Origin: a virus
Lineage: Duplodnaviria; Heunggongvirae; Uroviricota; Caudoviricetes
IMG/VR virus record: IMGVR_UViG_2737471830_000002
Reading direction: 5' to 3' (one strand)
DNA: 33,074 bases
Under the pieces are notes generated by a model, which saw only the letters and a list, made by a program, of their open reading frames with translations, made no database searches and was not told the origin of the DNA. How positions within the stretch are numbered: position 1 is the first letter of the stretch; every line of letters starts with the position of its first letter. Shown in pieces: positions 13,977-33,074 of the stretch. The position numbers were made by a program, and so were the translations under genes.

Positions 13977-15475
13977 TTAAGTTCTCCGTGCGATGGGCCT
14001 GATTGGGGCTGGTATCTTTTTCTCTTTTGGTTTTTTGATGTCCCGCATCATTTTGGCGAAGCGGCGCATCATGTATGCATAGCGAACGGCTGAGAGAACG
14101 TCGTCGTTAAGCTTGACGATTTTCCCGTTTTCATCACGGTGATAGAGGCGGAACTCCTCAAAGAATGGCTCACATGTGTTGAATACTTTGAAGCGACCAT
14201 CAAGCATCATGTCGCGCAATTCAGTGATGCCTGGCTCAACAGCGTTACCGCCATCAGGCCATGTCGCATGCTCCTGCAGCATCATAAAACCAGCATCTGC
14301 ATACTGCCCTTTGAGCTGCTCACCGCCGCCCTTCTCGTGCTGGTTTCCGTCATGAGGCCATGCTGTTGGCACTTTATGCGCCCATGATTTAACAGCTCCC
14401 CATGCCTGAACGGCTGTTTTTTCTTTCGCCTTCCACACGCGTGAAACGTAGATTGTGTCTGCGTCCTTATCCCACCAAAGCTGAACCTGCGCCTGCGGGT
14501 GATCCCATCCGAAATCCATCCCGCCAATTACGTAGAAGTGATCAGGACACTCGAACGGCTGACACTTAATCGTCTCTTCCGGTATCTGGAAGATTCGACC
14601 ACTACCCATCGTAGGAATACCGCGAGCACGCGCCTCTCTCTCATGCTCAGGATAGGATGCGATGATTTGCTCTTTCTGCTCGTCGGTGTAGTGTTCAGCG
14701 TCATAGATGGTCATGTTGACCACTTTCTGAGACTTGCTGGGATTCTTCAGGAACTTGGTAACAACGTCAGACATCCCCATCAGCGGGGTAAACGTCAGAA
14801 TTGAGAATTGACCGTATTTGTTGGTACGGGTAAGGCCTTCGCCATAAATGCTGTATGGTGGTTCTTCGTCAAACCACACGCCGTGGATTGTGTCACCCTG
14901 CCAGCGAGCACGGCCTTGCGAGTATGGTTTGAAGTAGCAGATTGAAATACCATCTTCAACGCCATCAGCCGTGTGATGCTTAACCAGAAGGTGATCAACA
15001 AGGTTCGGAAAGAAAGGAGACTTCTTCCAGCTAATGATGTCTTCTTTCGGTATGGAACCGTAGCCTGGCTCATCATTCTCTTCGATACGACCACACAGGA
15101 TGCGTTGAGTCGTTTTGGTTACAGTCTCGTTTGTCTCGCCACCAATCCAGAAGACAACAGGCTCATAGAAACGCTTACCTTTCCACTCTCCGCCATATTT
15201 ACCATCAGCAGGATATCCTTTTGTTCCCGGATAAGCCCGGTAAGGTGAAACGCGACTTCGGCAGCACCAGTAAATGACTTACCAAGCTGGTTACCAGCCA
15301 TAAAACAGCGCTCTGGATAGTCATGCCCGGCGTCGATGAACTCACGCTGTTTGCTGTATGGCGTAAATTCATATAGCAGGTGTGTGTTCCGGTAGTTATC
15401 TTCTTCTTCGAGTAGCTCGAGCAATTCGATTTGCTCTTCGTCGCTCAGGTTATCAAGAATCGCGTCCAGTTCCAC
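13977..15475 (-). pseudogene. Terminase large subunit (P22 gp2-like) interrupted by a 1-nt frameshift near 15226..15245
   Basis: N-terminal ORF (15119..15475) carries Walker A AGNQLGKS then turns to nonsense and stops; the adjacent frame reads RAYPGTKGYPADGKYGGEWKGKRFYEPVVFWIGGETNETV... continuous with the 13977..14879 C-terminal ORF. Span is 1499 nt, one short of 500 codons. Confidence 0.8.
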
Positions 15476-20193: not shown

Positions 20194-20480
20194 GACTTAA
20201 TCTTCCCCTCCTTCAGCAGTATCGCCTGCGTCCTGATCACGCCTTCGAGGTGGTAAAGTCTGGCGTCTTTGTTGTCGAGGTTATGGGTGCGTCGGTCGAT
20301 TTCATCGTGACACGCGCTACAAGCCCATGCGCCGATCAGGTCGTCAGGCTTCATTCCCGTTCCGCAAATTCCAGCCATCCGGTAATGTGCCAGAACTGTA
20401 GTTTCAGGATTGCCATTGCATACGCCGTAAATACGTACCTGGCATTCTCTGCCGCGTGCTTCTTTGCGTAGGTTAGCCAT
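20190..20480 (-). CDS. YbcO-like (DUF1364) protein
   Basis: 96 aa, Cys-rich; lies immediately upstream of rusA as ybcO does in the DLP12 prophage. Confidence 0.55.
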   Translation of the reverse strand: MANLRKEARGRECQVRIYGVCNGNPETTVLAHYRMAGICGTGMKPDDLIGAWACSACHDEIDRRTHNLDNKDARLYHLEGVIRTQAILLKEGKIKS

Positions 20481-21202
20481 TAAGCAGCCTCCCCTGTTAC
20501 TTTCAGCATTCCGTTATCGAGAAGCTTTCTGGTCAGCCACTGTTGACCACGCCCGGTGATTTTTGTGGTGAACGATATCTGTATTCCGTGATTTGTGTTG
20601 ACCGCTGTTTCTTTCACTGTGAAATAGCCGCGATCCATATATTCCTGCATTGGCACATTGCGCCGGGAACCTGAAGCAATAAGGATTTTGTGATCGCGCA
20701 TCCATGCAAACAGTTTGTTTGGACCAATACCAACAACCTTTGCATAGTTTCCAATCAAAATTCCGCTGGCCTCGCCAACGCGATCGGCAAACTCAACTTT
20801 AGGTGCGGCAATTGCGAGCTGGTTTTCCAGTTGCATTTTCTGCTCAGCAAGATCAGCAGCAAGGCGCAACGCTTCTGGTAGCGTTTTGGGGATATTAACC
20901 GCAGTTTCTTCAAGCTCTCGCCAACGGTCAACAAGACGAGCGGTGAATTCCGGCGACAACTGGGCAACAACGACAATACTGTCTCGCTTACCTTGTTCGC
21001 CTTCGAAGACGTAATGCTCGTACTGAACATTGAACCCTAAGTTATTGATTCTTTCGAAAACCTCAATTTGAGGAAGCCGGATAACACCATTTTTAGCCAG
21101 CGTTTCGATGGTACGCTTCACATTGTCATGACGCTTACCAACCAACTCAGCGATTTCAATGCTTGTCATTTTGATGGCATTGCCATTTATTAACTCATTC
21201 AT
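20480..21202 (-). CDS. Rha/Roi-like phage regulatory protein with antirepressor (KilA-C/ANT) C-terminal domain
   Basis: 240 aa; N-terminal HTH-like segment MTSIEIAELVGKRHDNVKRTIETLAK; located in the nin region where roi sits in HK022/HK97. Confidence 0.6.
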   Translation of the reverse strand: MNELINGNAIKMTSIEIAELVGKRHDNVKRTIETLAKNGVIRLPQIEVFERINNLGFNVQYEHYVFEGEQGKRDSIVVVAQLSPEFTARLVDRWRELEETAVNIPKTLPEALRLAADLAEQKMQLENQLAIAAPKVEFADRVGEASGILIGNYAKVVGIGPNKLFAWMRDHKILIASGSRRNVPMQEYMDRGYFTVKETAVNTNHGIQISFTTKITGRGQQWLTRKLLDNGMLKVTGEAA

Positions 21203-21365
21203 CGTCTTCTTCCTCGTACATTGAGCTATTCGGATCGCTCATCAGTTCTGCGCAGCAGTGCTCACACACGTGAACTTCCAGCACATGCAGCTTCTGACCG
21301 CAGTTAGCGCACGTTAAAGCCCGCTCGACGCTTTCTTGTTCGTAACTTCGATTTGGGTCAATCAC
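21195..21365 (-). CDS. ninF: NinF-like zinc-ribbon protein
   Basis: [35 protein letters not shown] with CxxC...CxxCC; likely GTG start at 21365 overlapping the ninE stop (ORF track extends to 21407). Confidence 0.6.
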
Positions 21366-21544
21366 CTTGTATTCCTCGCACGATGTCTTAGCCACCGGAT
21401 ATCCCACAGGTGAGCCGTGTAGTTGAAGGTTTTTACGTCAGATTCTTTTGGGATTGGCTTGCGTTTATTTCTGGAGCGTTTCGTTGGAAGGTATTTGCAG
21501 TTTTCGCAGATGATGTCGGTGATACTTCGTCACTGTCGTCTCAT
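21362..21544 (-). pseudogene. ninE: ninE-like gene with in-frame TGA at codon 5
   Basis: ATG at 21544 overlaps the ninB stop (ATGA); reads MRRQ, TGA at 21532..21530, then 55 sense codons ([55 protein letters not shown]) ending in a stop overlapping ninF. Confidence 0.55.
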
Positions 21545-21981
21545 GCCGCCCTGTCTCCCCATCGCGCTTTCCATTCGAGAGCCAGTCGCGCTTCGTCTGA
21601 CCACTTAACGCCACGCTCTGTACCGAATGCCTGTATAAGCTCTAATAGCTCCGCAAATTCGCTTACCCGCATCCTGCTGGTTGACTGGCCTATTACCACA
21701 AAGCCATTCCCGGCAAGGTTAGGAACAACGTCCTGCTGCTTTAATGCTGCGGTAAACACACACTTCCAGCTTTCTGCATCCAGCCAGCGACCATGCCATT
21801 CAACCTGACGAGAGACGTCACCAAGGCAAGCCCAAAGCTTCCGATTCTGGTCTAAGCTGCGGTTGCGCTCCTGAATGATCACTACGATTGGCTTGGTTGG
21901 GTCTGGAAGGATTTGCTGTACTGCGTGAATAGCGTTTTGCTGATGTGCTGGAGATCGAATTTCAAAGGTTAGTTTTTTCAT
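21541..21981 (-). CDS. ninB: NinB (Orf-family recombination mediator)
   Basis: MKKLTFEIRSPAHQQNAIHAVQQILPDPTKPIVV... near-identical to lambda NinB; ATG at 21981. Confidence 0.85.
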   Translation of the reverse strand: MKKLTFEIRSPAHQQNAIHAVQQILPDPTKPIVVIIQERNRSLDQNRKLWACLGDVSRQVEWHGRWLDAESWKCVFTAALKQQDVVPNLAGNGFVVIGQSTSRMRVSEFAELLELIQAFGTERGVKWSDEARLALEWKARWGDRAA

Positions 21982-31826: not shown

Positions 31827-33074
31827 CTATATTGCTGAAGGTACAGGCGTTTCCATCACTATTTGCTCGCGTTTTTTACTCAGGAAGAAAATGCCAAATA
31901 GCAACATCATGCAGACAATACCCGAAATTGCGAAGAAAACTGTCTGGTAGCCTGCGTGGTCAAAGAGTATCCCAGTCGGCGTTGAAAGCAGCACAATCCC
32001 AAGCGAACTGGCAATTTGAAAACCAATCAGAAAGATCGTCGACGACAGGCGCTTATCAAAGTTTGCCACGCTGTATTTGAAGACGGATATGACACAAAGT
32101 GGAACCTCAATGGCATGTAACAGCTTCACTAATGAAATAATCCAGGGGTTAACGAACAGCGCGCAGGAAAGGATACGCAACGCCATAATCACAACACCGA
32201 TAAGTAATGCATTTTTTGGCCCTACCCGATTCACAAAGAACGGAATAATCGCCATGCACAGCGCTTCGAGTACCACCTGGAATGAGTTGAGATAACCATA
32301 CAGGCGCGTTCCTACATCGTGTGATTCGAATAAACCTGCATAAAAGACAGGAAAAAGTTGTTGATCAAAAATGTTATAGAAAGACCACGTCCCAACAATA
32401 AATATGACGAAAACCCAGAAGTTTCGATCCTTGAAAACTGCGATAAAATCCTCTTTTTTTACCCCTCCCGCATCCGCCGCTACGCACTGGTGATCCTTAT
32501 CTTTAAAACACATGTTGATCATCATAAATACAGCGCCAAATAGCGAGACCAACCAGAAGTTGATATGGGGACTGATACTAAAAAATATGCCGGCAAAGAA
32601 CGCGCCAATAGCATAGCCAAAAGATCCCCAGGCGCGCGCTGTTCCATATTCGAAATGAAAATTTCGCGCCATTTTTTCGGTGAAGCTGTCAAGCAAACCG
32701 CATCCCGCCAGATACCCCAGGCCAAAAAAGAGCGCCCCCAGAATTAGACCTACAGAAAAATTGCTTTGCAGTAACGGTTCATAAACGTAAATCATAAACG
32801 GTCCGGTCAAGACCAGGATAAAACTCATACACCAGATGAGCGGTTTCTTCAGACCGAGTTTATCCTGAACGATGCCGTAGAACATCATAAATAGAATGCT
32901 GGTAAACTGGTTGACCGAATAAAGTGTACCTAATTCCGTCCCTGTCAACCCTAGATGTCCTTTCAGCCAAATAGCGTATAACGACCACCACAGCGACCAG
33001 GAAATAAAAAAGAGAAATGAGTAACTGGATGCAAAACGATAGTACGCATTTCTGAATGGAATATTCAGTGCCAT
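31827..33074 (-). CDS. cscB: LacY-family oligosaccharide:H+ symporter, probably sucrose permease CscB
   Basis: 415 aa, 12-TM MFS; aligns along its length with LacY; the start codon is the last three bases of the window. Confidence 0.8.
   Translation of the reverse strand: MALNIPFRNAYYRFASSYSFLFFISWSLWWSLYAIWLKGHLGLTGTELGTLYSVNQFTSILFMMFYGIVQDKLGLKKPLIWCMSFILVLTGPFMIYVYEPLLQSNFSVGLILGALFFGLGYLAGCGLLDSFTEKMARNFHFEYGTARAWGSFGYAIGAFFAGIFFSISPHINFWLVSLFGAVFMMINMCFKDKDHQCVAADAGGVKKEDFIAVFKDRNFWVFVIFIVGTWSFYNIFDQQLFPVFYAGLFESHDVGTRLYGYLNSFQVVLEALCMAIIPFFVNRVGPKNALLIGVVIMALRILSCALFVNPWIISLVKLLHAIEVPLCVISVFKYSVANFDKRLSSTIFLIGFQIASSLGIVLLSTPTGILFDHAGYQTVFFAISGIVCMMLLFGIFFLSKKREQIVMETPVPSAI

Follow-up and report, generated by a model that had tools for sequence, protein, structure and literature searches.

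The stretch of DNA analysed here (the window, 33,074 nucleotides) is an integrated P22-like prophage, with the phages HZ41, IME10, Dewey and CurroJimenez as its nearest phage relatives. Its right end (31827-33074, minus strand) is the host gene cscB, which encodes a sucrose/oligosaccharide MFS transporter and thus places the prophage beside the csc locus of an E. coli-type chromosome. In the related locus L226 (positions 1-1605), a PfkB-family kinase gene lies beyond cscB. A search of the whole window with ARAGORN gave no tRNA genes. The early-right operon occupies the minus strand in the order replication initiator, DnaB-type helicase, ninB, ninE, ninF, a Rha/KilAC gene, a YbcO-family nuclease gene, and the genes for RusA, NinH and Q.

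Within this small, basic gene of the early-right (nin) operon, ninE, lies the lesion considered here. The ninE frame (21362..21544, minus strand) is recognized by translation and by its Pfam match, and comprises 61 codons, including two stops. It starts as ATG AGA CGA CAG TGA CGA AGT and is preceded by GGC GGC. The first stop is the opal codon 5 (TGA, 21530..21532, minus strand), which derives from CGA (Arg5) by a C>T change of the coding strand at 21532. With the C behind it the stop signal reads UGA-C, and 55 sense codons come after the TGA. By this opal codon the gene is a pseudogene or a hypomorph. A sequence-only reading had already described the in-frame TGA and the run of sense codons behind it, and both its coordinates and its description are correct.

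The gene is tightly packed between two intact neighbours. Upstream, ninB (21541..21981, minus strand; 146 amino acids; Pfam NinB PF05772, 181.6 bits) encodes an orf-family recombination mediator. Its TGA stop (21543..21541) and the ninE ATG (21544..21542) have in common the sequence ATGA at 21544..21541. Downstream, ninF (21195..21365, minus strand; 56 amino acids; Pfam NinF PF05810, 47.5 bits) overlaps ninE in a GTGA at 21362..21365, formed by the ninE stop TGA (21364..21362) and a ninF GTG (21365..21363) whose assignment as start follows the lambda layout. Both overlaps, from which the same reading had deduced translational coupling, are thus present. This architecture is that described for nin regions, in which gene content varies between lambdoid phages and ATGA overlaps are typical (PMC8022706). 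Within the 3' part of ninE, 7 nt ahead of the ninF GTG, there is a Shine-Dalgarno-like GAGGA motif (21373..21377, minus strand), through which initiation at ninF would be possible even when ninE is not translated. Directly after ninF comes the antirepressor-like gene with Rha and KilAC (ANT) domains (20480-21202, minus strand; 240 amino acids). In lambda ninF is followed by ninG, whereas in the window it is followed by the Rha/KilAC (ANT) gene, then the YbcO-family nuclease gene and the RusA gene. This replacement of ninG shows that the nin region is mosaic.

With codon 5 read as Trp, the window product matches Pfam NinE (PF05322) over profile positions 1-57 of 58 with 142.1 bits, for a cut-off of 25. 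It therefore falls in the NinE family by its profile, and in the nin region by its synteny with ninB and ninF. Lambda NinE (NP_040637, PF05322) belongs to the same family, has the same place upstream of ninF in the early-right operon, and is 92% identical at the protein level to the window product with Arg5 restored. The two genes differ in their 5' parts: lambda ninE begins with GTG and has Ala at codon 2, whereas window ninE begins with ATG and has Arg at that codon. Their surroundings differ as well, since lambda ninE comes after ninD, whereas in the window and in phage 21 it comes directly after ninB. A further difference is at codon 5, which is CGA in lambda and phage 21 but TGA in the window. 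Compared with the ninE genes of phage 21 (OL657228) and phi458, this C>T of codon 5 is the sole change, 182 of 183 nucleotides being identical to phage 21. Likewise, over 165 nt, window ninE is the commonest CGA haplotype (27 copies), the T of codon 5 apart. Because of the Pfam match and the one-base difference from phage 21 and phi458, the TGA is a specific lesion in a recognizable gene and not part of a chance open reading frame. The proposal of a nonsense mutation is hereby borne out. A functional NinE member has an uninterrupted frame of ~58-60 codons; here the frame is broken by the TGA, with no in-frame restart, so that window ninE is classed as a pseudogene or hypomorphic allele.

An inherited but rare allele

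A trivial origin of the T would be an error of sequencing or assembly, the source genome truly having CGA at codon 5. The window assembly may indeed contain errors, as its large terminase gene lacks 1 bp that is present in sister assemblies. These sister assemblies were reached through the adjoining helicase protein, used as an exact-match handle and carried by 23 contigs. Of the five loci returned by the helicase search, four reach ninE, and in each of them codon 5 is TGA. They come from the Logan assemblies SRR23498928, SRR8606462 and ERR12510478 and from the NCBI assembly GCA_012547115.1 (loci L226, L227, L228 and L229), that is from different runs and projects, and around codon 5 they are 99.9-100% identical to the window. 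The T is also found on other haplotypes, in one metagenome contig and one IMG/VR contig. Since the same T occurs in four independent assemblies of one prophage lineage, the TGA is inherited and not an artefact. Resequencing, which had been suggested as a check, is answered by these assemblies, and an error at this position is extremely unlikely.

In the recombinant locus from GCA_012547115.1 (L229; AASSGD010000088.1, 2762-2944), identity to the window extends from the part upstream of ninE over most of the gene, up to a mosaic breakpoint within the last few ninE codons. The downstream module differs and encodes a 133-amino acid ORF, NinF, NinG, a NinI-type phosphatase and another type of Q. 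The TGA was carried across the exchange, so the allele is old enough to have taken part in mosaic exchange.

In the three other sister loci, 339 nt between ninB and the Rha/ANT gene are left empty by the gene calls (L226:11891-12230, L227:5901-6240, L228:5911-6250). Both the interrupted ninE and the intact 56-amino acid ninF are uncalled there, which shows how annotation can overlook small nin genes.

Among homologues, codon 5 is nearly always CGA. A scan of IMG/VR in which codon 5 was left free gave 113 copies, 112 with CGA and one with TGA. A larger survey of 182 ninE copies in the same database, anchored in mid-gene and so not conditioned on the 5' end, gave CGA in 178, TGA in two, CGG in one and ATA in one; in the ATA copy the 5' end is displaced by a 1-bp deletion. 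A query of 57 nt with the T at its centre matched 1,370 places in 868 complete E. coli genomes; none of these matches was exact, and the best of them all had exactly one mismatch. In species-representative genomes with the ninE 5' motif the codon is CGA in four of four, but this collection contains one genome per species and thus says little on allele frequency. Lambda ninE has CGA (Arg), as do ~99% of homologues. The dominance of CGA in lambda, phage 21, IMG/VR and representative genomes, together with the lack of an exact T-bearing match in complete E. coli genomes, indicates that TGA is a derived, rare state, and the prediction of CGA as the ancestral codon agrees with lambda and with 112 of the 113 IMG/VR copies. 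The sequence-only reading had taken a TGA shared by homologous genes as a sign against mutation. Such sharing does exist, as a rare minority on two other haplotypes (L022 and L115), but TGA is not the normal state. Its presence on these haplotypes indicates that the allele is real and possibly recurrent. Elsewhere, ninE is conserved and under purifying selection, with a crude pN/pS of ~0.27 over 87 haplotypes.

The terminase lesion and the state of the nin region

The stop and the missing ninC and ninD genes had also been read together as signs that the nin region is decaying, as it would throughout a degrading prophage. Such decay would be in line with a second lesion in the window's own prophage, in the gene of the large terminase TerL (P22 gp2-like, 499 amino acids in relatives; 13977-15475, minus strand). 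A 1-bp deletion near 15235 (GGGCGTTAT -> GGGCTTAT), not located in a homopolymer, shifts the frame at about codon 81, while the remaining 418 amino acids are 100% identical to HZ41. This lesion, due either to a defective prophage copy or to an assembly error, suggests that the window copy is probably defective, and sporadic ninE pseudogenes do occur in prophages. A protein-level screen of the window against HZ41 revealed no lesion besides this TerL frameshift and the ninE stop. Only the window has the frameshift; the sister loci L226 and L227 combine an intact 499-amino acid TerL with the ninE TGA. The ninE stop therefore predates the TerL lesion and is unconnected with it.

The nin region itself is in good condition. 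A cryptic prophage would have several disrupted or deleted genes in this region; here ninE alone is affected, and the other ORFs (ninB, ninF, Rha/ANT, YbcO, RusA, NinH and Q) are intact. There is no room for ninC and ninD between ninB and ninE, where lambda has both genes. The same direct junction through ATGA is nevertheless the normal arrangement of the viable phages 21, HK022, HK542, 2B8 and phi458, and the junction without ninC and ninD is found in at least 775 complete E. coli genomes. Hence the lack of the two genes represents a common mosaic form and is no sign of decay. With TGA-bearing sister prophages that have a complete gene set, TerL included, a general decay of the nin region loses its footing and is a most improbable cause of the stop.

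Predicted translation at the opal codon

Ribosomes starting at the ATGA junction of ninB and ninE would stop after four codons (MRRQ). Beyond codon 5 the frame has no in-frame ATG, GTG or TTG for a restart and no ORF of at least 30 amino acids, so that a truncated NinE is not expected to be made. Near-cognate read-through of UGA by tRNA-Trp would then be the sole route to full-length NinE, and its product, NinE R5W, would reach a few per cent at most. In wild-type K-12, UGA is read through at ~2% at 37 C and ~4% at 25 C, owing to competition of Trp-tRNA with RF2 (PMC10570021), and TGA is described as leaky with insertion of Trp (PMC7918605). Given termination after four codons, the lack of a restart and a leakiness of the generic kind, the allele is presumably null or strongly hypomorphic.

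Special signals for read-through were sought after the UGA. No SECIS-like or stimulatory hairpin is present: the minimum free energy is -10.5 kcal/mol (z = +0.55), and 143 of 200 shuffled sequences fold at least as well. The inverted repeat GUGA-cgaagua-UCAC (4-bp stem, 7-nt loop; 21516-21533, minus strand), perfect only with the C>T change, is too weak for folding. Programmed recoding, by selenocysteine insertion or read-through, would go along with a stop conserved among homologues, where the codon is CGA in 112 of 113 and 178 of 182 copies. Lacking both conservation and structure, the ninE TGA is not a programmed recoding site.

A less demanding proposal is a selected leaky stop, in which UGA-C would throttle NinE to a few per cent by Trp read-through while NinE R5W is still functional. 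UGA-C is reportedly the weakest stop signal of E. coli, a result attributed to Poole, Brown and Tate (1995), whose paper is among the references of PMC9841425. The TGA allele has survived one recombination event or more (L229), and in the window lineage the ninE codons downstream of the TGA are unchanged. The absence of further change in these 55 codons is what a recent mutation would show, but ongoing constraint on a product of read-through would leave the same picture; prokaryotic genes with an in-frame stop and retained constraint have been suggested to be frequent (PMC7918605). With the leaky UGAs of enterobacteria, where Trp is inserted at a few per cent, the window shares UGA-C and the type of host (PMC10570021, PMC7918605). 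It departs from such systems in that the stop is not conserved and no stimulatory element follows, and read-through of this order is a property of any UGA nonsense mutation. The prevalence of CGA in ~99% of homologues also speaks against a selected leaky stop. So does the TGA allele of L022, an IMG/VR contig, which has other changes as well; among them is R23L, which does not occur in the NinE variants tabulated in the 113-copy scan and fits relaxed constraint. Moreover, unrelated lesions destroy other ninE alleles, so plain loss is evidently tolerated. Taken together, selection for a leaky stop is very improbable.

Probable tolerance of the loss and possible recurrence of the stop

The best explanation, and a very probable one, is that a single C>T transition has turned CGA (Arg5) into an opal stop and thereby left a non-essential gene with an ordinary allele of the loss-of-function or hypomorphic kind. 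Plaque formation does not require the nin region, ninE included, and antitermination of early lambdoid transcription past ninE is established lambda biology (PMC10695390). In a CRISPRi study of lambda, ninE was not amenable to targeting and is cited as non-essential. In a lambda interactome paper, NinE is listed as of unknown function, with a single low-confidence two-hybrid match to tail protein U. By analogy with lambda nin deletions, loss of NinE would thus be tolerated: the region would be dispensable, ninF would rely on its own GAGGA, and antitermination should prevent nonsense polarity on Q. Polarity on Q is indeed not expected because early transcription is antiterminated in lambdoid phages. 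Such an allele is nothing new in kind.

Other ninE genes have been hit by unrelated lesions. In IMG/VR, C13* (TGC to TGA, L192), W51* (TGG to TAG, L130) and a 1-bp deletion just past the start (L129) are found, and E34* (L234) occurs in Shimwellia pseudoproteus (NZ_WBXP01000045.1). These sporadic pseudogenes of a prophage accessory gene are, like the window allele, point lesions in a dispensable gene that is passively carried in lysogens. Most simply read, all these lesions are sporadic knockouts of a dispensable gene in lysogens, and the window provides one more case of lambdoid nin accessory genes being dispensable and inactivated in this manner.

Unlike these singleton lesions, the window TGA is found on several haplotypes and in several isolates. 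The haplotypes with TGA form at least three groups, namely the window with L229, L022, and L115, a metagenome contig with a different gene upstream of ninE. For each of them, CGA alleles lie nearer than the remaining TGA groups do. This implies either independent C>T events or short-patch recombination; more broadly, the three groups hint at recurrence, spread by recombination or selection over a single neutral accident.

Recurrent or positively selected loss of NinE would make codon 5 a mutational hotspot, or loss advantageous to the phage or the lysogen, for instance by removal of a toxic product or of a trigger of host defence, and the same knockout would then arise or spread time and again. 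It would account for the occurrence of TGA in three groups that differ in mosaic context and have a CGA allele as their nearest neighbour. IMG/VR scans for the corresponding C>T nonsense changes gave no copy at codons 3, 4 or 6, against one at codon 5, but counts of 1 versus 0, 0 and 0 are too small to weigh. It is conceivable, as a speculation, that the change was templated by a quasi-palindrome, for the T completes a perfect 4-bp GTGA..TCAC inverted repeat. The metagenome scan, however, was aimed at codon 5 only and its sampling is biased toward codon-5 TGA. Two or three coincident events among ~8 transition-to-stop sites are not significant (P ~0.06-0.3, by our own estimate). Near-identical lambdoid nin regions could also pass one allele from background to background by short-patch recombination, and the allele is missing from the 868 complete E. 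coli genomes with the ninB-ninE junction. Recurrent or selected loss is thus unlikely. An opal codon that is recurrent or selected in the wider sense, through a hotspot or through a benefit of either losing or throttling NinE for the prophage or the lysogen, is likewise doubtful, and quite improbable as an alternative to a neutral accident. If it were true, it would offer the first handle on NinE function. A rare stop on several backgrounds, if confirmed by a large population survey, could hint at selection on the conserved NinE.

With the ordinary loss-of-function or hypomorphic allele as the preferred explanation, the locus is to be annotated either as a pseudogene of ninE or as an allele with possible read-through at a low level. 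Typical enterobacterial lambdoid ninE is also present on contigs of metagenome-assembled genomes labelled Segatella copri (L232) and Cellvibrionaceae (L233), which are probably mis-binned phage or prophage contigs.
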